DNA of 33,831 nucleotides, from IMG/VR virus record IMGVR_UViG_3300033463_000034, one strand, 5' to 3'. The stretch's first letter is position 1. Every line of letters begins with the position of its first letter. The notes under the pieces are model-generated. The model had not been told where the DNA came from. It made no database searches and worked only from the letters and a program-made list of their open reading frames with translations. Below, piece after piece: positions 24,911 to 33,831 of this stretch. A program made the translations under genes and the position numbers. The DNA is from a virus. Taxonomy: Duplodnaviria; Heunggongvirae; Uroviricota; Caudoviricetes.

Positions 24911-26151
24911 TAGCTATCACTTCCTTCATTATCAGAATAAGTATCTAAATCTTTTTCTTTTTGAGCTTCAACTTCTTCCATAAAAGCGGCATAATCTTCA
25001 TCTTCAATCTCAGTAACTCCATCTTGAGCAGCTGCTTCCGCCTCATTCATTTCTTTTTGAATTTGAATTTTCTTTAAAGCATCTTCAATTTGTTGACCAA
25101 AACCTAAATCTTGAGTAACTAATTTATGAAGATAATCATTCATATCTTTTAAAGTTAAATCAACTTTATCTTGAGGAATATCTGTTGCATATCTAGGAAT
25201 AAAACCATCTTTTTCACACATTGCAACTAATTCACCTACGCTATCAACAAAATCATTTTTATCTTCTTTATTTTGCGCTGCCGTAAATTTAGCTGATTTT
25301 CTTAATGATTCAGATACTTTTGATAATTTTTGAAAACCATCAACATCTCCAATATCAAGAGATTGATTCATTTTAAGATTTGTTTTACAAATTAATATTA
25401 ATGTATTAATTGTATCTGCATCTTGAATATCAAAAGACTCAGTCATTTCATTATAAATTCTTTCTAATTCAACTCATTCTGCAGGCTTATATAATCTACC
25501 TCATTTCATGGCTAAATATAATTTATCATCTTGAGTTAATTCTGCCGCAGTATCTATCATATCATCTTCAGACATATAATCATTTTCATTCATTCCAATT
25601 GAACCATTCATATTTGGTATTTGTCCAATAGGCAATAGAGTTGGATCTATAACAGGTTGTTCTTTATGTTTAGTTTCTGTTGAAATTAATGTTTTATATT
25701 CAGCTTCTGAAATTTCCCCAGCTTCAAATTTCTCTTTCGCTTCTGCCTCTCTTTGAGCTGCTTCCGCCGCATGTTGTTCTGCTCTTTCTTTATATCTTTG
25801 TTGTAATCTTTCACTATCTTTTCAACCAATAGGCTCACCAGTTTCTGGATCAAATTTTCATTGTTTTAATTTCATTTTAGATAAATATCTTCCAAATACT
25901 GATTGGCTAGTTAATTTACTAGGATCTTTTTCATAAATTCTATCTCTTAAAGTATTCCATTCTGCGGGAATATAAGGAACATCCATTTTTTCTAATAACC
26001 ATAGAAATGTACTTTCATCAAAATTATTAATATGCATTGTTAAACATTTTTTACATAATTCTGTTTTAGTTCCATCTTTATAAGTAAAAAATTGATTTTC
26101 ATCCATTATCTTGCCGCATTTTTCACAATAATATTTTTCTTTTTCGTTCAT
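24910..26151 (-). CDS. Zn-finger protein, candidate terminase small subunit, 413 aa (code 4)
   Basis: Track ORFs 25858..26151 and 24910..25446 are in one frame across TGA 25858, 25822, 25501 and 25474. N-terminal CEKC..CKKC; translationally coupled to terL. TerS identity is inferred. Confidence 0.7.
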
Positions 26152-26165
26152 ATTTTCACCTCTTA

Positions 26166-27260
26166 TTATCTACTTAATCTATCTTCTTTATTTTTTTTAT
26201 TTCTACAACATTTACAAATACTATATCATCCATCTTTTGAGGTAGAATTTTTAGAAAAATATAAATTATGTGCTAATTTTACTTCTCCACAACGAGAACA
26301 CCTTTTTCATTGACCCTTCTTTTGCGTTGTATAATACCAATTTAAATATCTTTTAACGGCTGATTCCGCCAATAATTTAGGTATTTTATTGCGCCAAAGT
26401 GAACTAATATACTCAACCGAATGTTTTATACCGTGGTTAAGCTCTAGTAAGAACTGGATCTCCGCATTACTTCTACCATCTATTTTATAAATTAATAAAT
26501 CATAATATAAAGGATATTCATCTTTTAATGTGGTTTCAATTAAATTATCTAAGTCTAACATCATATAATAACAATCTCCAGTAAAATGTTCATAACTTTC
26601 TTCTTTTAACATACTATAATTACATAATAAAGCAGAAATATGTTTTGGATTAAAGAAAGAACATAATCCATTACTTACTGGCATACCATTTTTATCAAAT
26701 GTAATTTCTTCATCAAAATCAGCATGTGCAAATGATTTAACTGCATTTGAAATAAAAATAGGTTGTTTAATTGTATTTTTTATTGTATATTGTTCTTGGC
26801 ACATTTCTATTAATTGTTTTTTTAAAGCATATTTTCTTTTACCAGTTGCACGAGCAGCCTGGTTTTTAACATTTTCTATAGCGACATCTAACTCTGCTAA
26901 AGCAGGCATTTCCGCCTTATCTTTAGGCGAGATGTGAATTTTTGGTGTTAATAATACATTTTTATCATTATCTATTGTTATATTATAAAGACCATCTTCT
27001 CCATTTTCAAATTTATTTACCAATCCCTGATAAGATACTTCTCTTTTATTTATTGTAATCATTCTATTGTTTGTTAATATTTCTTTTTTTTGTTTTTCTT
27101 CTTTATCCATAGCTAATACTATATAATTTGATAATATTTCAATATATTTTTCGGTTAATTGATTAGGAGGAGTTTGTCTTACTATTTCTTCTACTAGATT
27201 TTTACGATCTTCCGCATTTTTTAAAGTATAATCAAGTTTAATTTTAGTTTCCACTAGCAA
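26166..27260 (-). CDS. Putative transcription regulator: sigma70-region-4-like HTH plus C-terminal C4 Zn finger, 364 aa (code 4)
   Basis: TTG start after AAGGAG. HTH-like YKIDGRSNAEIQFLLELNHGIKHSVEYISSLWRNKIPKLLA. After TGA 26307: KRCSRCGEVKLAHNLYFSKNSTSKDG-W(TGA 26226)-YSICKCCRNKK, then TAA 26166. Confidence 0.75.
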
Positions 27261-27309
27261 AACTCCTTTCTTTCTATATGTTAATCATCTTTGTCCTATC
27301 TTTATAAAT

Positions 27310-27338
27310 ATTATATTCCAAAAATTTTGAAATGTCAA
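27310..27338 (-). promoter_or_regulatory. Consensus sigmaA promoter driving the minus-strand module
   Basis: TTGACA (27333-27338) - 17 nt - TATAAT (27310-27315), followed by ATTTATA as in the early promoters. Confidence 0.85.
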
Positions 27339-27359
27339 ACCTAGATAAAGTAAGATAAA

Positions 27360-27388
27360 TTGATTTTAATAAAAAAGTATAATATAAT
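27360..27388 (+). promoter_or_regulatory. sigmaA promoter P1
   Basis: TTGATT - 17 nt - TATAAT (27383-27388). Confidence 0.7.
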
Positions 27389-27419
27389 ATTTATAGAAAA
27401 AAGAAAAAGGTGAAAATCA

Positions 27420-27692
27420 ATGAATAAATTAAATATATTAAGAATAAAGATAAAAAAATTTTGGATATGCTATTTATATGGCATAGGCAAATATTTGTTA
27501 TGTGCGGCCGCGGTAGCAGGGTTAATGATTCTTTTAGCAGTGACTGCCGCACCAAAAGTATATTATTATATAGATTATAATGGAAATGAAGGAGTCGCTA
27601 AAAATTGTCAAGTAATTGCCGCAGGTTTAGTATGTGAAAAAATGTATGGTGGTAAAATAATGGTAAAAGAATATTCTGAAATAAGGAGGTAA
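27420..27692 (+). CDS. Hypothetical membrane-anchored protein, 90 aa
   Basis: AAGGTG RBS, hydrophobic stretch YLLCAAAVAGLMILLAVTAA, TAA stop. Confidence 0.75.
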   Translation: MNKLNILRIKIKKFWICYLYGIGKYLLCAAAVAGLMILLAVTAAPKVYYYIDYNGNEGVAKNCQVIAAGLVCEKMYGGKIMVKEYSEIRR

Positions 27693-27697
27693 TTAAT

Positions 27698-27856
27698 ATG
27701 GCAGGATATAGAAATAGAAAAATAAGGATGCCTAGAAATCCTATTGGTAGTCCAAGAAAAATAGCTCAAAGAGGTTTTTATGAAATGTTTAATATTTTAT
27801 TAGGAAATGATGTAAAACCTCGTGATTATGGGAAAAAATTAAGGGATAAAAAATAA
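27698..27856 (+). CDS. Small basic protein, 52 aa (below track cut-off)
   Basis: AAGGAGGT RBS; MAGYRNRKIRMPRNPIGSPRKIAQRGFYEMFNILLGNDVKPRDYGKKLRDKK; TAA stop. Confidence 0.7.
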   Translation: MAGYRNRKIRMPRNPIGSPRKIAQRGFYEMFNILLGNDVKPRDYGKKLRDKK

Positions 27857-28170
27857 AATCGTATATTGTAATTGAAAATAGGCTTGGAGATTTTTGTGTC
27901 GAGGCAAAACCCAAATTTAAAAATCAAAAAAAATTTTTCCTACAATACTACCCCTAGTACCTGGCAAATACGTTCTGTAGCAGGTAAAAACCATGGGCAA
28001 CTAGGTATAAAACATAGGGTCGCAGGCACTCGTTTGGCTGCGAATTTTACATAAGATTTACATATAAATAAAATGTAAACTAAAATAAATAAAAAAATAA
28101 ATTAAATAATTTTTCCTAAAATTAAATAGTAAATTGAATTACCTTGAACCGTATTTAAGGGGAACCTTAG

Positions 28171-28184
28171 CGAACATTCGTTTG
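28171..28184. promoter_or_regulatory. Gram-positive LexA (SOS/Cheo) box
   Basis: CGAACATTCGTTTG matches CGAAC-N4-GTTYG. Confidence 0.7.
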
Positions 28185-28226
28185 TATTAAATAAATTAAA
28201 AAAAATTAATTTTTTTCAAAAAACTA

Positions 28227-28255
28227 TTGACAAATTGCTATTGTTATGTTATAAT
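28227..28255 (+). promoter_or_regulatory. sigmaA promoter P2
   Basis: TTGACA - 17 nt - TATAAT with an extended -10 TG and an upstream A-tract. Confidence 0.9.
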
Positions 28256-28288
28256 TATTATAGAAAAAGAGAAAGAGAGTGCTAGAAT

Positions 28289-28465
28289 ATGGAAAAAGAA
28301 AAACTAATGGAAATGATAGAACAAGTTGAAAATGAATTATTTTGTTTAGATTTAATTGATAGATGGACAATAGAAGATAAAAAACAAGCAAATAAATTAT
28401 ACAAAGAATTAGCACAATTAAAAAAACATTTAGCCGAAATAAAAGTAAAAACTTTAAAAAAATAA
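28289..28465 (+). CDS. Hypothetical protein, 58 aa (below track cut-off)
   Basis: Follows P2 with AAAGAGAG leader; MEKEKLMEMIEQVENELFCLDLIDRWTIEDKKQANKLYKELAQLKKHLAEIKVKTLKK; TAA stop. Confidence 0.75.
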   Translation: MEKEKLMEMIEQVENELFCLDLIDRWTIEDKKQANKLYKELAQLKKHLAEIKVKTLKK

Positions 28466-28475
28466 TTAAAACCTA

Positions 28476-28504
28476 TTGACAAATAGATTTGATTATGATA
28501 TAAT
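28476..28504 (+). promoter_or_regulatory. sigmaA promoter P3
   Basis: TTGACA - 17 nt - TG-A-TATAAT. Confidence 0.9.
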
Positions 28505-28537
28505 TATTATAGAAATAAAGAAAGAGAGTTGAAAATT

Positions 28538-28723
28538 ATGATTAATACAAAAACTATTGAATTAAATTATGAAGAAGCACAAACATTAAGAAGAGCATTA
28601 CTTGATAAAATGCAAGAGATAGACTTAACAAATGCTTTCAATGAACCATACTATAGAGCACTTGATAAATTATACACTAAATTAGAAACAATAGAAGAAG
28701 AATTAGAAGAAGAAAGAAATTAA
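28538..28723 (+). CDS. Hypothetical protein, 61 aa
   Basis: Track ORF 28529..28723; ATG 28538 fits the leader spacing better; TAA stop. Confidence 0.75.
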   Translation: MINTKTIELNYEEAQTLRRALLDKMQEIDLTNAFNEPYYRALDKLYTKLETIEEELEEERN

Positions 28724-28797
28724 TTCTATTTAATAATTCTTCTTCTAATTGAAGAAATATCTAGACAATAGGAAAGATTAAAAAGGAGTTGGCGGAA

Positions 28798-29004
28798 ATG
28801 GGTAGAAAAATAATTAAAGAACTAAAACAAATCAAATGGGAAAATGTTGTTACATTGATAATGATAATATTATTTACAATTAGTTTAATTAATCATATTA
28901 TAATAAATGGATTTTACTTTAATCTAATAACTGAATTATTTGTTGACTTGATGTTTATTTTAGCAATAAGATTTACAATAAAAGAAAGTAAAATAAATAG
29001 ATAA
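28798..29004 (+). CDS. Small two-TM membrane protein, 68 aa
   Basis: AAGGAG 9 nt before ATG 28798; two hydrophobic segments separated by a short loop, with basic ends. Confidence 0.7.
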   Translation: MGRKIIKELKQIKWENVVTLIMIILFTISLINHIIINGFYFNLITELFVDLMFILAIRFTIKESKINR

Positions 29005-29006
29005 AT

Positions 29007-29036
29007 AAAATGCAAACAAATGTTTTTGCATTTTTT
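29007..29036 (+). terminator. Intrinsic terminator
   Basis: AAAATGCAAA/TTTGCATTTT stem running into a T-tract. Confidence 0.7.
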
Positions 29037-29149
29037 GTTATAATAAAATGAAATTGGGAAAAACCTTGCTTTAGGGTAAAAGTAGTGTCAAATTTTGTAA
29101 AGCGGCTTGACGGCTCGGGGTGGGTCAGGGCGAGCCGATTTTGCGTACG

Positions 29150-29163
29150 CGAACATTTGTTCG
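29150..29163. promoter_or_regulatory. Gram-positive LexA box (perfect)
   Basis: CGAACATTTGTTCG. Confidence 0.85.
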
Positions 29164-29216
29164 GATTTCGCCGAATAAAAAACGAAAGCGGAAATGATTA
29201 GTTGTTTTCCTAAAAC

Positions 29217-29230
29217 CGAACAAATGTTTG
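29217..29230. promoter_or_regulatory. Gram-positive LexA box
   Basis: CGAACAAATGTTTG, abutting TTGACA at 29233, which is followed 18 nt later by TG-TAAAAT. Confidence 0.75.
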
Positions 29231-29284
29231 AGTTGACAAAATGTCAAATAAAAGTGTAAAATAAAATTAATTAATAAAAAATTA

Positions 29285-29313
29285 TTGATAAATAAATTAA
29301 TTAATGTTATAAT
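29285..29313 (+). promoter_or_regulatory. sigmaA promoter P4
   Basis: TTGATA - 17 nt - TG-T-TATAAT. Confidence 0.85.
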
Positions 29314-29346
29314 TATTATAGTGAAAGAGAGAAAGAGGTTGAAAAA

Positions 29347-29886
29347 ATGAAAAAAATAGTTAAGGTAGTAATTAATTTAATGGTGTTAGTAAGTGCAGTA
29401 ATGATTACAAAAGCAAGAACTTCCGCAAAGGTTGTAACTCAAGTAATAGTTGAAAAGGAAGAACCTATTGTAATAGTAATGGAAAAAAAGGTTATTGAAA
29501 AAGATATTGCTTTCAATAATGCTAATGAAAAAAATATCTATAATAAAGCAATAGAACAAGGACTAACAAAAGAACAAGCAATGTTATTAATAAGTATCTC
29601 AAGACACGAAACAGGTGCTTGGACTAGTAAAGCATTTAAAAATGATAATAACTTTGGTGGCATAATGAGTAATGGTGGTTTAAAACACTATGAAAGTTAT
29701 GAAGAAGGACTTAATGATTTTGTTAGAATATTAAAAACTTATTACTTTGAAAAAGATTTAAATACAATAGAAGAAATAGGTGCAAAGTATTGTCCAGTTG
29801 GAGCGGCAAATGACCAAAATGGTTTAAATAAATATTGGGTTGGCGGAGTTACTAATTTCTACAATTATTACTTAACTTTAATTTAA
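29347..29886 (+). CDS. Exported/membrane-anchored peptidoglycan glucosaminidase (GH73/PF01832-like, lysozyme-like fold), 179 aa
   Basis: N-terminal signal/anchor MKKIVKVVINLMVLVSAVMIT; catalytic region ISRHETG..KAFKNDNNFGGIM..KHYESYEEGLNDFVRILKTYY..TIEEIGAKYCP..YWVGGV, typical of this family. Confidence 0.75.
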   Translation: MKKIVKVVINLMVLVSAVMITKARTSAKVVTQVIVEKEEPIVIVMEKKVIEKDIAFNNANEKNIYNKAIEQGLTKEQAMLLISISRHETGAWTSKAFKNDNNFGGIMSNGGLKHYESYEEGLNDFVRILKTYYFEKDLNTIEEIGAKYCPVGAANDQNGLNKYWVGGVTNFYNYYLTLI

Positions 29887-29899
29887 GCGGCGACCGCAG

Positions 29900-29926
29900 T
29901 CTAGATTTTTCAAATCTAGATTTTTT
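29900..29926 (+). terminator. Intrinsic terminator
   Basis: TCTAGATTT/AAATCTAGA followed by TTTTTT. Confidence 0.8.
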
Positions 29927-29966
29927 CGTGCTTAACCGCTTGCTTCCGCTTCCAACCCGAAAAATG

Positions 29967-29980
29967 CGAACAAATATTCG
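29967..29980. promoter_or_regulatory. Gram-positive LexA box (1 mismatch)
   Basis: CGAACAAATATTCG. Confidence 0.65.
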
Positions 29981-30012
29981 TGTAATAATTTTTCATTGAT
30001 TTGGGGCTTGGG

Positions 30013-30026
30013 CGAACATACGTTCA
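30013..30026. promoter_or_regulatory. Gram-positive LexA box
   Basis: CGAACATACGTTCA. Confidence 0.8.
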
Positions 30027-30069
30027 TATTCCTAAAATTAAAAAAAATAAAAAATATTTAAAAAAAGTA

Positions 30070-30098
30070 TTGACTTTTTACTATTGCTATGGTATAAT
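30070..30098 (+). promoter_or_regulatory. sigmaA promoter P5
   Basis: TTGACT - 17 nt - TG-G-TATAAT. Confidence 0.9.
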
Positions 30099-30130
30099 TA
30101 TTATAGAAATAAAGAAAGAGAGTGGTTAAA

Positions 30131-30325
30131 ATGAATAGAACAGGTTATAAATTAATTGATACAATTACAGGTGAAATAGTAGAGTGTATTTATAGAAATG
30201 TTATTCTAGAAGAAGGACACGAAAGAATGACAAACTATAAAGAAATTTACAACAAAGAGTTTTACTTAGTTGCTATTGATACTACTACTTATGAATTAAG
30301 AGAATATCCTATTCAAAAAAGTTAA
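30131..30325 (+). CDS. Hypothetical protein, 64 aa
   Basis: Track ORF 30122..30325; ATG 30131 fits the leader; TAA stop. Confidence 0.75.
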   Translation: MNRTGYKLIDTITGEIVECIYRNVILEEGHERMTNYKEIYNKEFYLVAIDTTTYELREYPIQKS

Positions 30326-30343
30326 AAACTTTTTGAATAGGTA

Positions 30344-30372
30344 TTGACAAAAATTAATAATTATAGTATAAT
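30344..30372 (+). promoter_or_regulatory. sigmaA promoter P6
   Basis: TTGACA - 17 nt - TATAAT. Confidence 0.9.
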
Positions 30373-30400
30373 TATTATAGTAAGAAAGGGAGTTGATAGT

Positions 30401-30892
30401 ATGGCAAGAAAAATAATTAAGTTTACTAAAAAAGATAAACAATTTATTCAAGACTTTACTAACTCTATCAATAAAAACTTAATAATTGCAATAAGTGAAA
30501 ATAAAAGATTTGAGTGTGATATTCCTAATAATACAATTTATTTAGGACTAAAAAACTTAAATCAAATAGAAAACAACTTATTCAAAAAATGGTTAAAAAA
30601 TGAAAATATAACTATTAAAATGAATAGAAGATTATTAAGTTTGTTACACGAAATAGGACACTTTCAAACTTTCAACGAACAAGAGTTTGAAGATAGAAAC
30701 TCAATGGAAAAAATCTATAATCAAATGTATGAAAATGATTTAATCACTTTTGAAGAATTAAACTTTAATTATTGGAATATGACAAACGAGAAAAAAGCAA
30801 CTTTATGGGGAATACAATATTATTTAGAAAATACAAAAAAATGTAAACAACTAGTTAAAATATTAAAGTTAAATAAATTTGTAAAATTTTAA
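30401..30892 (+). CDS. Putative Zn metallopeptidase (HExxH), ImmA/IrrE-like, 163 aa
   Basis: True start is ATG 30401 after AAAGGGAG (the track start lies in promoter P6). LLHEIGH motif plus a downstream NEKKATLWG helix resembling the E-x-x-A motif of ImmA/IrrE. Confidence 0.55.
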   Translation: MARKIIKFTKKDKQFIQDFTNSINKNLIIAISENKRFECDIPNNTIYLGLKNLNQIENNLFKKWLKNENITIKMNRRLLSLLHEIGHFQTFNEQEFEDRNSMEKIYNQMYENDLITFEELNFNYWNMTNEKKATLWGIQYYLENTKKCKQLVKILKLNKFVKF

Positions 30893-30900
30893 AAAAACTA

Positions 30901-30929
30901 TTGACATAAATAAATAAAAGTGCTATAAT
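30901..30929 (+). promoter_or_regulatory. sigmaA promoter P7
   Basis: TTGACA - 17 nt - TG-C-TATAAT. Confidence 0.9.
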
Positions 30930-30961
30930 ATATATAGAAATAAAGAAAAGGAGTGATAATT

Positions 30962-31120
30962 ATGGCTAAAAGAAAACCAGTAGTTCAAAAAGTAGTAGTT
31001 GACAAAAATGCAAAACAATTTATGAGAACAGCATTAAACCTTGCAAGAAAAGGAAAAACAAACAAAAAATTGCATGGTCGTAATGCTAACCCAAAAGCAA
31101 TGAAATACAACATTGCTTAA
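30962..31120 (+). CDS. Small very basic protein, 52 aa (below track cut-off)
   Basis: AAGGAG RBS; MAKRKPVVQKVVVDKNAKQFMRTALNLARKGKTNKKLHGRNANPKAMKYNIA; has its own promoter and terminator. Confidence 0.8.
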   Translation: MAKRKPVVQKVVVDKNAKQFMRTALNLARKGKTNKKLHGRNANPKAMKYNIA

Positions 31121-31145
31121 GTGTAAAGTAATTTACACTTTTTTT
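31119..31145 (+). terminator. Intrinsic terminator
   Basis: AAGTGTAAA/TTTACACTT followed by TTTTT. Confidence 0.8.
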
Positions 31146-31253
31146 GTTTTAAATTAATACTTTACATTTGGTTGACAGCGGGCCGCCTTCGTGGGTCATT
31201 TCTCGCTGCGGCCCGCATTTTTACAGAGACTTTACATGTAAAGTTTTGTCAAT

Positions 31254-31283
31254 CGAACATTGGTTCTAGCGAACAAATGTATT
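31254..31283. promoter_or_regulatory. Tandem LexA boxes (one good, one degenerate)
   Basis: CGAACATTGGTTCT (31254-31267) and CGAACAAATGTATT (31270-31283). Confidence 0.7.
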
Positions 31284-31318
31284 TTTCCCAAAATTATTAA
31301 AAAAAATTAAAAAAAGTA

Positions 31319-31347
31319 TTGACTTGTTGCCGCCATTGTGCTATAAT
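31319..31347 (+). promoter_or_regulatory. sigmaA promoter P8
   Basis: TTGACT - 17 nt - TG-C-TATAAT. Confidence 0.9.
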
Positions 31348-31376
31348 ATTTATAGAGAAAAGGAAAAGGTGAGAGA

Positions 31377-31778
31377 ATGAAAAAAGTTTACTTAGACATG
31401 GACGGAACTATCGCTAATTTATACACACAAAATAACTGGTTAGAAAGATTAGAAAACGAAGATAAAACAATATTTTTAGATTGTAAGCCAATGACTACAC
31501 AAGAAACATTATTAAAATTATTTCCTATTGATAAATTTGAAATAGTTATCTTAACAATGACACCAAAAAATTGTTCTATTAAATATCATAATCAAGTAAT
31601 AGAACAAAAGAAACAATGGTTAGAAAAGTTTTTCCCAATGTTAAAAAAACAAATATTTATTAAGTATGGAAATAATAAAAACTTAAAAAATAGTGCTAAT
31701 GCAATTTTAATTGATGATAATGCGGTTATTCGTGATAATTTCCGCGGAATTGCACTTAATCCCGCAAACCTTTGGTAA
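31377..31778 (+). CDS. HAD-superfamily 5'(3')-deoxyribonucleotidase-like protein (NT5C-like), 133 aa
   Basis: Motif I VYLDMDGTIANL, motif II ILT, K..WL, motif IV ILIDD. Confidence 0.8.
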   Translation: MKKVYLDMDGTIANLYTQNNWLERLENEDKTIFLDCKPMTTQETLLKLFPIDKFEIVILTMTPKNCSIKYHNQVIEQKKQWLEKFFPMLKKQIFIKYGNNKNLKNSANAILIDDNAVIRDNFRGIALNPANLW

Positions 31779-31806
31779 AAAAAATAAAAAATATTTAAAA
31801 AAACTA

Positions 31807-31835
31807 TTGACAATATTTTTTAAAAATGATATAAT
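31807..31835 (+). promoter_or_regulatory. sigmaA promoter P9
   Basis: TTGACA - 17 nt - TG-A-TATAAT. Confidence 0.9.
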
Positions 31836-31870
31836 TATAATGTAATAAAGAAAGAGAGAGATAAATTAAA

Positions 31871-32614
31871 ATGACAAAGAAAATTGACTTGAAAAAAGAA
31901 AAATATCTACTTTTTGTAGATACTGAAACAATAGGAACTTTAAATGTAAAAGAAAGTGTACTACCATTTGAAATAGGTATTAAAGTATTAGATACTGAAA
32001 CAAATAAAATTGTTAAAGAAAAAAGTTATTTAGTAAGAAAATTCTTTAATAATAAATATATAATGTTATCAACATTTAGTGCTACAAAATATCCAAATTA
32101 TTTTGAAAAGTTAGAAAATGATAAAAGATACAAAACAATGAGTGCTAATGATATTTCAAAAGATTTAGAAAAAACAATTCAAAGATATAATATTAAAATA
32201 ATGGTTGCACACAATGGAAACTTTGACCAACAAGCAATAGCAAGATTATTTGAGGACTTTGGAGTTGAAAATCCACTTGAAAATATTGATTTACTTGATA
32301 CAATGGAAATATCAAAAATAATAACATTTAGTAAAGATTATGCTAACTATTGTATAGAAAATAAAGATAGATTAAATAGTTTAAAAGAAAGTTGTTTTAT
32401 AACTAATAGTGGTAGAGTAAGAACAACAGCACAAGCAATTTATTGCTATTTATCAAATAATGCCGACTTTCAAGAAGCACACACAGGACTTGAAGATATA
32501 GACATTGAAATAGAAATATTTAAAAAATCTATGGAAATGTTAGGAAATACAATAGTAAATCTAAACACTGCACCAACTTGGAGAGATTATTCAAAAGTAA
32601 TTGAAGAAGATTAA
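31871..32614 (+). CDS. DEDDh (DnaQ-like) 3'-5' exonuclease, 247 aa
   Basis: ExoI FVDTETIG, ExoII VAHNGNFD, LDT, ExoIII EAHTGLEDI. Confidence 0.88.
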   Translation: MTKKIDLKKEKYLLFVDTETIGTLNVKESVLPFEIGIKVLDTETNKIVKEKSYLVRKFFNNKYIMLSTFSATKYPNYFEKLENDKRYKTMSANDISKDLEKTIQRYNIKIMVAHNGNFDQQAIARLFEDFGVENPLENIDLLDTMEISKIITFSKDYANYCIENKDRLNSLKESCFITNSGRVRTTAQAIYCYLSNNADFQEAHTGLEDIDIEIEIFKKSMEMLGNTIVNLNTAPTWRDYSKVIEED

Positions 32615-32646
32615 TTCTTCTTCAATTATAAAAAGGTTGTGATATT

Positions 32647-32724
32647 ATGATAAAAAAAATAAAATGGAAAATAGTTTGTATTTGTGCTTGGTTGATAAAT
32701 AAGCAAAATAGATGGGAAGATTAA
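32647..32724 (+). CDS. Putative 25-aa Trp/Cys-rich peptide
   Basis: AAAGGTTGTG leader; MIKKIKWKIVCICAWLINKQNRWED; TAA lies inside the following terminator. Confidence 0.45.
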   Translation: MIKKIKWKIVCICAWLINKQNRWED

Positions 32725-32738
32725 AAATCTTCTTTTTT
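32716..32738 (+). terminator. Intrinsic terminator
   Basis: GAAGATT/AATCTTC followed by TTTTTT. Confidence 0.7.
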
Positions 32739-32751
32739 GGTTGCGGCAATG

Positions 32752-32765
32752 CGTATTTATGTTCG
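32752..32765. promoter_or_regulatory. Degenerate LexA box
   Basis: CGTATTTATGTTCG (reverse complement CGAACATAAATACG), followed by ATTGACA. Confidence 0.5.
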
Positions 32766-32944
32766 ATTGACAAATTATTTACATTTACTTTACGCGGGCG
32801 GCGCGCTCACGATAGAAAAACTTCATTGCGCGCCGAATTTACATAAGGTTTACATATTAGAAAATCTCGTACCGCCGCGATACGCCAGGCTGCGTTGTAA
32901 GATTTTCCCAAAATAAAAAAAATTAAAAAATTTTTAAAAAATGC

Positions 32945-32973
32945 TTGACTTATTTTTAAATAAATGATATAAT
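32945..32973 (+). promoter_or_regulatory. sigmaA promoter P10
   Basis: TTGACT - 17 nt - TG-A-TATAAT. Confidence 0.9.
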
Positions 32974-33006
32974 TATTATAGAAAAAAAGGAAAGGAGATG
33001 ATTGAA

Positions 33007-33201
33007 ATGTCTACAAAAAGTAAATTAATTTATTTAAAAGTTTTAATGAATATTAAAAACAATGTTTACTCACAAAATCAAGCACAATTAAAAAATGATT
33101 TATTAATGATTAAAAGACTTTTAATCATTGAAAATCAAGATAAAACAAACTTACAAAAAATTGAAAAAAATATGCAAAAACTATTGACAAAGGCAAGTTA
33201 A
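33007..33201 (+). CDS. Hypothetical protein, ~64 aa
   Basis: Track ORF 32998..33201; ATG 33007 has the better spacing from AAGGAG. The 3' end overlaps the -35 of P11. Confidence 0.7.
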   Translation: MSTKSKLIYLKVLMNIKNNVYSQNQAQLKNDLLMIKRLLIIENQDKTNLQKIEKNMQKLLTKAS

Positions 33202-33212
33202 TATGATATAAT
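33184..33212 (+). promoter_or_regulatory. sigmaA promoter P11
   Basis: TTGACA - 17 nt - TG-A-TATAAT. Confidence 0.9.
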
Positions 33213-33244
33213 TATTATAGAAATAAAGAAAGAGAGTGATAGTT

Positions 33245-33397
33245 ATGTTAAGATTAGTTGATAGAGTTGAAAATAAAAGTTATAAAGGTTCAAAAAAATC
33301 AATTATGACTTTACTACAATTAAAGTTCAATGAGTACAAATATTATGGAATATTAAAAGGTATTGTTTGTATAAACGATACTTGGTACATAGGTTAA
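33245..33397 (+). CDS. Hypothetical protein, 50 aa (below track cut-off)
   Basis: Follows the P11 leader; MLRLVDRVENKSYKGSKKSIMTLLQLKFNEYKYYGILKGIVCINDTWYIG; TAA stop. Confidence 0.7.
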   Translation: MLRLVDRVENKSYKGSKKSIMTLLQLKFNEYKYYGILKGIVCINDTWYIG

Positions 33398-33412
33398 AAG
33401 GGGGTTGTTAAA

Positions 33413-33646
33413 ATGGTTAAATGGACTGCTCAAGAATTACTAGATACTTTCAATAAAGAAACAAATCTAGAAGAATTAAATGAGTTATACAAAGCACTAA
33501 TTGCTTATAACTTAGGTTGTACTACTATTGAAGAAGATAAACTAAACGAGGTTTTAGAATACTATTACTCTCAAGACTTTATTTATAGTATTATTAATCA
33601 AGATGTAATTGATTATGCTAATGAAATTTTAGAACAAATTCATTAA
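33413..33646 (+). CDS. Hypothetical acidic protein, 77 aa
   Basis: AAAGGGGG RBS, TAA stop. Confidence 0.75.
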   Translation: MVKWTAQELLDTFNKETNLEELNELYKALIAYNLGCTTIEEDKLNEVLEYYYSQDFIYSIINQDVIDYANEILEQIH

Positions 33647-33652
33647 AAAGTA

Positions 33653-33681
33653 TTGACTTTCTATAATAGTTATGTTATAAT
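33653..33681 (+). promoter_or_regulatory. sigmaA promoter P12 (no downstream ORF)
   Basis: TTGACT - 17 nt - TG-T-TATAAT. Confidence 0.8.
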
Positions 33682-33751
33682 TATTATAGAAAGTTAAACA
33701 AAGGTTATTACATAATTAATTTAAAAAAAATAAAAAAATTCAAAAAAACTA

Positions 33752-33780
33752 TTGACATTAAAAATTAATTATGTTATAAT
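33752..33780 (+). promoter_or_regulatory. sigmaA promoter P13
   Basis: TTGACA - 17 nt - TG-T-TATAAT. Confidence 0.85.
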
Positions 33781-33831
33781 ATAAATGTAATAAAGAAAAG
33801 GAAACTTTATTACAAATAGTTAAAAAATCCA

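Follow-up and report, generated by a model that had tools for sequence, protein, structure and literature searches.

LexA-type boxes among early genes and TGA recoding of late genes in an SPbeta-like gut phage

Can a tailed phage tie the rereading of a stop codon to the DNA-damage response of its host? The question is raised by positions 26,166–33,831 of a stretch of 33,831 nucleotides (the window, below) from the virus record IMGVR_UViG_3300033463_000034, in which boxes of the LexA type are interleaved with early genes written in the standard code, beside a late module whose genes use TGA as a sense codon. The initial annotation had joined the two in a two-lock switch, with LexA and the SOS response gating an early programme that supplies a UGA suppressor, and the suppressor in turn releasing the late genes. 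The recoding gate on the late genes stands, and is an already published mechanism for what seems to be this kind of phage, whereas LexA/SOS control over the supply of the suppressor is not supported. The features probably form two layers of regulation that do not make up a chain; the serial switch lacks support, because boxes and recoding are distributed independently of each other among relatives and no LexA site accompanies the suppressor tRNA.

The window corresponds, in reverse complement, to bases 1–33831 of a record of 105,241 bp (G000), for which CheckV gives a completeness of 70% and whose guanine-plus-cytosine (GC) content is about 27%. Its relatives in IMG/VR are contigs of 117–136 kb, and strains 98% identical across the shared region exist as ENA contigs of 129–134 kb; from these strains it follows that some 28 kb of the phage is absent from the record, and genome-wide statements drawn from the record alone are therefore incomplete. 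The absent part, as seen in the strains, holds the remainder of the early block, a block with sigma-70, SSB and RNA-ligase genes, and most of a tRNA array. Public sequencing runs with this stretch come from the bovine gut; they are metagenomes of at least 13 studies, and no RNA run is among those listed. Within the window, a minus-strand virion module with the SPbeta-type domains YonG_N, YonD_N and YonB lies left of about 27,340 and a plus-strand block of small genes right of it, and the GC skew flips sign between 27000 and 28000, close to this point of divergence. We consider it probable that this is a roughly 130-kb SPbeta-like bovine-gut phage resembling the published TGA-recoded "Agate" type (the Agate work of Borges et al. 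reportedly also appeared in Nat Microbiol in 2022).

Boxes and promoters of the early block

A scan of the 105 kb with the Gram-positive LexA (Cheo) pattern CGAACN4GTTCG, at no more than one mismatch, gave eight boxes against 0.23 ± 0.42 expected from Markov simulations. Seven of the eight fall within 3.1 kb of the early block (28171–31267), and all of these but one are intergenic (Table 1); the interleaving of boxes with early genes that the initial annotation described is thus borne out. In 59 related loci, with similar lengths of DNA compared on the two sides, boxes number 62 in the early part and 4 in the late part, and the inner positions that the pattern leaves free prefer A in first place (49 of 62) and T in last place (41 of 62), giving CGAACAwwTGTTCG, the Firmicute LexA consensus known from the Bacillus subtilis SOS box. 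A degenerate half-site at 31271–31284 follows the box at 31254.

Table 1. Coordinates in the window of the late module, the early block and the LexA-type boxes.
Feature	Position	Strand	Description
Late (virion) module	2–26151	−	TGA = Trp reading; YonG_N-domain protein, TerL, portal, YonD_N, YonB, tail genes
First late-module gene	26166–27254	−	362 aa, start GTG at 27254 (as in public data); helix-turn-helix-like helical domain, C-terminal C4 zinc ribbon
Promoter of first late-module gene	27310–27338	−	consensus sigmaA, TTGACA-17-TATAAT, 12/12 match
Early block	27360–33831	+	about 15 small genes, standard code, all stops TAA
Glucosaminidase-like gene	29347–29886	+	N-terminal hydrophobic segment; weak domain, Pfam E 4.6e-5, below cut-off
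NT5C-like (deoxy)nucleotidase	31377–31778	+	
DEDD exonuclease-like gene	31871–32614	+	
Island A	27860–28200		GC-rich, intergenic
Island B	29005–29280		GC-rich, intergenic
Island C	29887–30040		GC-rich, intergenic
Island D	31122–31290		GC-rich, intergenic
Island E	32726–32910		GC-rich, intergenic
Box CGAACATTCGTTTG	28171–28184		island A; 1 mismatch; 42 nt upstream of −35 at 28227
Box CGAACATTTGTTCG	29150–29163		island B; perfect match
Box CGAACAAATGTTTG	29217–29230		2 nt from −35 of promoter 29233–29262 (TTGACA-18-TAAAAT)
Box CGAACAAATATTCG	29967–29980		island C; perfect in 98%-identical strain
Box CGAACATACGTTCA	30013–30026		island C; 43 nt upstream of −35 at 30070; perfect in 98%-identical strain
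Box CGAACAAGAGTTTG	30676–30689		inside 163-aa open reading frame; not kept at ≤1 mismatch in near-identical strain
Box CGAACATTGGTTCT	31254–31267		island D; 51 nt upstream of −35 at 31319 (nucleotidase/exonuclease genes)
Weaker box CGTATTTATGTTCG	32752–32765		island E; 2 mismatches; abuts TTGACA hexamer

A sigmaA promoter close to the consensus, together with an A-rich UP element, precedes each early gene or gene pair, and about 16 of these early promoters score 10–12 of 12. In the first of the two layers, host sigmaA RNA polymerase reads these promoters of the standard-code block, and the near-consensus Firmicute LexA operators carried by the five islands would be bound by host LexA, which would dampen the neighbouring promoters or tune them to the SOS response; the tuned subset would include the nucleotidase and exonuclease pair and the murein-hydrolase-like gene. 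On balance we favour the prediction that host LexA binds the early-region boxes and that its binding would modulate the adjacent promoters. The boxes would then act as a dimmer and not as a lock on the whole programme. A LexA lock on all early genes is unlikely, because boxes are present in only five islands, at five of the roughly 16 promoters, and only the box at 29217 is placed as a classical SOS operator: the gaps between the box ends and the next −35 are 2, 42, 43, 51, 69, 89 and 179 nt, so that one of eight boxes abuts a −35 and the others lie 42–179 nt upstream or within an open reading frame.

Two other roles have been weighed for the boxes. They may be decoys, the hundreds of high-affinity sites on replicating genomes titrating LexA and so switching on the host SOS regulon, with its repair enzymes and its block on division, for the good of the phage and with no effect on its own promoters. 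Most boxes are indeed not over core promoters and cluster where intergenic space exists, and they match the consensus better than do the boxes of candidate-host lexA promoters; yet a distance of about 42 nt to the following −35 recurs and one box abuts a −35, which suggests a link to promoters, the sites per genome are few and their number varies among relatives, and we regard titration as unlikely. It is quite unlikely, too, that a DNA-binding protein encoded by the phage and sharing the LexA motif uses the boxes as its operators, with host LexA uninvolved. Such an arrangement has a precedent in gp6 of phage GIL01, a LexA homologue (PMC6182141), and many of the small early proteins here are without known function, but the contig has no LexA_DNA_bind or S24 domain, none is among the precomputed Pfam matches for the absent region in near-identical strains, and the motif equals the host-type consensus down to its inner A/T preference.

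The islands hold more than boxes. Terminator-like hairpins occur in them, as do two other motifs under conservation, TTTACAT and TTTCCYAAAA, in the order terminator hairpin, GC-rich hairpin with a T-run, TTTACAT/TGTAAA repeats, TTTCCYAAAA, A-rich UP element and promoter, and this architecture is kept across relatives even where the LexA boxes are missing. An Rfam search of 26000–33831 at E values up to 1 gave no match, and the GC-rich islands therefore belong to no known RNA family. In relatives that have no boxes, perfect palindromic operators were looked for, with no convincing candidate. The boxes are tied to no single downstream gene family, with a loose recurrence only near nucleotidase, exonuclease and 163-aa genes, and homologues of the early nucleotidase and exonuclease pair lie near LexA boxes in the loci L066, L079 and L009 as well. 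The glucosaminidase-like gene, unusual as an early cell-wall enzyme, sits behind the island with the best LexA boxes.

TGA recoding and the suppressor tRNA

The virion module is intact only when TGA is read as a sense codon, and the early genes are, as the initial annotation held, neutral to the code: at 27360–33831 their real coding frames contain 10 TGG but not one TGA, every stop being TAA (two TGA counted initially fall in over-extended 5′ ends of open reading frames and were excluded). In the late genes we counted 140 TGA and 73 TGG, so that TGA makes up 66% of the Trp codons, and at that rate the chance of 0 of 10 in the early genes is about 2e-5; the full early block of a near-identical strain has 17 TGG and 2 doubtful TGA. 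Along the genome the TGA share of Trp codons is graded, from 0% in the early genes through 15% at 84.5–99.6 kb and 45% at 61–84.4 kb to the level of the late genes. With 15–45% in genes on the replication side, the suppressor is needed there too, and the gate is therefore not strictly one on late genes. The dependence of low-copy virion genes on TGA, another part of the initial annotation, is plain in TerL (5 TGA, 0 TGG) and in a tail protein of 2850 aa (34 TGA, 7 TGG). The capsid-type genes, those of YonD_N and YonB included, have no TGA; the high-copy capsid genes avoid it.

What the codon stands for can be read from the first gene of the late module, in which a TGA aligns with an invariant Trp column where 13 relatives encode TGG; judging from this alignment, TGA means Trp here. 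The gene has two in-frame TGA, one at 26307–26309, the invariant Trp just before a CxxC, and one at 26226–26228, within the zinc ribbon, and a third TGA of the long open reading frame (27285–27287) falls in the 5′ untranslated region, outside the 362-aa gene. The standard-code product is 315 aa long and ends ahead of all four ribbon cysteines. Both the strong promoter of its own and the need for readthrough to gain the zinc ribbon, as first described for this gene, are thus upheld. The ribbon is kept in every relative examined, and 18 of 19 TGA-recoded relatives have TGA in the gene, at positions that vary. Its TGA share over the 19 is 45 of 111, against 219 of 481 in the neighbouring late genes, and recoding does not single this gene out among the late genes; only 5 of the 19 have the consensus promoter.

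The position of this gene ahead of the packaging genes, its helical domain and its zinc ribbon point to a regulatory role. A match to PHROG 5767, "sigma factor" (E 3.9e-51), is the sole source of a sigma label; Pfam sigma-70 regions 2 and 4 gave no match in the protein even at E 5. Fold searches with the whole protein and with its C-terminal domain returned nothing significant and a PDB sequence search no match; the domain model (predicted local distance difference test, pLDDT, 87) had no PDB match below E 0.001, and full-length searches were uninformative. A better candidate for a middle or late sigma factor is a sigma-70-family gene in the region absent from the record (L062:14190–15041, minus strand, 283 aa, Pfam regions 2, 3 and 4).

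The initial annotation placed the suppressor outside the window, and no suppressor tRNA is found in the window or in the contig, on which ARAGORN at a low threshold gave noise only. The contig stops inside a syntenic tRNA array, after Thr, Gly, Met, Ala and Gln. In a 98%-identical strain the early block runs about 3.5 kb past the window and then meets a convergent block with the sigma-70-family gene, SSB, RNA ligase, phosphoesterases and the tRNA array, and here, among 16 tRNAs, lies a tRNA(UCA) of 95 nt (L065:1423–1517; Rfam tRNA, 58 bits). The relatives G001, G002 and G005 have a tRNA(UCA) of 96 nt adjoining tRNA-Trp(CCA) in arrays of 17–27 tRNAs. The suppressor block is almost free of TGA (6 TGA, 42 TGG), its sigma-70 gene entirely so, and the array contains sigmaA-like promoters, a strict one among them (genome position 102942). 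Families of RF1/RF2 and TrpRS gave no match in G000–G003 and G005. In the second layer, on the mechanism of published work, tRNA(UCA) from this separate block would read TGA as Trp and would thereby permit translation of the late genes, part of the replication genes and the zinc-ribbon regulator heading the late module; the suppressor itself is not under LexA boxes.

The tRNA(UCA) has an unusual shape. At 95–96 nt (L065; also L052, L053 and L057), it has a long extra arm that could pass for another anticodon arm, the loop reading CUCCAAA (CCA), and that closely resembles the one of the adjacent tRNA-Trp(CCA), as if a tRNA-Trp had acquired a further, UCA arm. Rfam searches next to it in the near-identical strain found tRNAs only and no ribozyme. 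Both tRNA(CUA) and tRNA(UCA) are present in G005 (L057, G005:1–12000), and the TAG-recoded relative G003 (L054, G003:1–20000) has tRNA(CUA) only.

There would be no gate at all if the host itself read UGA as Trp (code 4), an idea for which some relatives binned with "Mollicutes", "Tenericutes" or Anaeroplasmatales metagenome-assembled genomes (MAGs) could be cited. We give it hardly any credence: the early genes avoid TGA, close relatives use the standard code with TGA as a stop, the phage lineage carries its own tRNA(UCA) and a peptidoglycan hydrolase-like gene is present. RF2, moreover, occurs in all five MAGs that hold relatives, with the proviso that binning does not prove a host.

Boxes and code among the relatives

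If SOS control and recoding were coupled, as the two-lock switch proposed, boxes should travel with the code, and they do not. Classifying the related loci by code (59 given) yielded 13 TGA-recoded, 25 TAG-recoded, 16 standard-code and 14 uncallable; among the 58 loci with enough flanking DNA, clusters of at least three boxes occur in 3 of 14 standard-code, 2 of 12 TGA-recoded and 1 of 21 TAG-recoded loci, counts that are descriptive, the loci being related. Clusters without recoding are those of L009, L067 and L121, and L008/L009 has as many as 14 boxes in the standard code, with TGA serving as stop; recoding without any boxes is found in the TGA-recoded G001, G002 and G005 and in the TAG-recoded G003.

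Nor is there a box where the switch would need one. At no more than one mismatch, the suppressor block of the 98%-identical strain (L065), the surroundings of tRNA(UCA) included, has a single LexA-box match, a chance one within tRNA-Asp; the late-regulator promoter (27310–27338) has no box either, the nearest being at 28171. Boxes and recoding are indeed found together here and in the 98%-identical strains, the standard code is used in the early genes and in the suppressor block alike, the late regulator needs TGA readthrough, and the trigger of the code switch in such phages remains an open question (PMC10879173), all of which is what the two-lock switch would have. With boxes at a minority of early promoters, one of them touching a −35, and with box clusters and recoding found apart, we hold the serial arrangement to be very unlikely. 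An indirect coupling would do without a box at the tRNA: a LexA-flanked early gene might be needed to express, process or charge the five-armed tRNA(UCA), and host SOS status would then still decide the timing of the code switch. We rate this as highly improbable.

The preferred reading, of two layers that are not in series, has its own difficulties. Most boxes lie 40–90 nt upstream of the −35, off the core promoter, where binding would not obviously repress; boxes are missing from the closest large relatives, G001, G002 and G005; and in strains 98% identical to each other the boxes diverge at about the rate of the flanking sequence. LexA binding is predicted, and the host assignment comes from MAG binning, which is weak evidence. 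On the side of the suppressor, the region absent from the record has been seen except for some 6 kb that separate L065 from the end of the contig, and the timing of tRNA(UCA) expression is suggested by promoter-like sequences only.

Lifestyle, hosts and known systems

Searches of G000–G003 and G005, two of which are at least 90% complete, found no integrase, resolvase, ParA, ParB, CI-like, LexA-like or S24 protein, with one sub-threshold ParA-type match in G005, and no match to the tyrosine or serine recombinase families; by this gene content the phage looks virulent. Its relatives have been binned into MAGs of low-GC Bacilli, Erysipelotrichaceae and Carnobacterium, of which four of the five checked have lexA. 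Several of the lexA promoters show GAAC-N4-GTTTG fused to TTGACA, as in the loci L130–L133 of G007–G009 (low-GC Bacilli/Erysipelotrichaceae), where it is joined directly to the −35; the phage box at 29217–29230, with TTGACA at 29233, nearly copies this layout of candidate host MAGs.

The closest described phages are those of the Agate type, of about 127 kb, described as virulent and found in the guts of cattle and other animals; their structural and lysis genes contain in-frame TGA, their replication genes are variably recoded, and they have suppressor tRNAs as well as very close relatives in the standard code (Borges et al., bioRxiv 10.1101/2021.08.26.457843). A putative place of the present phage in that clade is suggested by size, habitat, code pattern and the close standard-code relatives. 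The proposal that recoding delays late proteins is theirs, but LexA, the SOS response and a late regulator go unmentioned there (bioRxiv 10.1101/2021.08.26.457843); the early-region LexA-type boxes and the TGA-dependent gene heading the late module are what sets the present phage apart. Recurrent clusters of such boxes in a virulent-looking SPbeta-like group were apparently not described by these authors.

LexA control of phage genes, on the other hand, has precedents. In SPbeta and phi3T the antirepressor Sar is LexA-controlled (bioRxiv 10.1101/2025.11.27.690993), and the present phage is like them in having Firmicute SOS boxes upstream of small early genes and SPbeta-type virion domains. SPbeta, however, is temperate, with a single box and prophage induction through the repressor SroF (bioRxiv 10.1101/2025.11.27.690993), whereas here there are 7–8 boxes, mostly upstream of promoters, and no integrase-fold repressor, integrase or partition genes were found. 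In GIL01, LexA together with gp7 represses promoter P1 (PMC4551915, PMC6182141); the use of host LexA directly at early promoters, in place of a CI repressor, is the point of likeness, predicted here from the sequence, but GIL01, a small temperate tectivirus, has its boxes within the promoter, and no gp7- or gp6-like protein was identified in the present phage. These known LexA-controlled phages are all temperate, and this one looks virulent. A further parallel is the "lytic deferment" of Alphaproteobacteria phages with CtrA boxes, in which sites for a host global regulator in lytic phages are proposed to time infection by host state (PMC9437464); the regulator, the host group and the phage group all differ from those here. 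For suppressor tRNAs associated with theta ribozymes, what triggers the code switch has been left as an open question (PMC10879173), and unlike these, the tRNA(UCA) of the near-identical strain has no Rfam ribozyme match adjoining it.

Overall, an SOS trigger would have answered the question of the code switch, and the evidence here points away from it. The recoded stops in the gene heading the late module, seen in nearly all recoded relatives examined, place part of the code gate at that gene, besides the structural genes. It is possible, though we advance it tentatively and at less than even chances, that a virulent phage group makes part of its takeover programme SOS-responsive through host LexA, independently of recoding. 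In a large group of virulent-looking gut phages, whatever their code, operators of the LexA type are found repeatedly in the early region, and this recurrence suggests that these phages sense or manipulate the DNA-damage response of their hosts.

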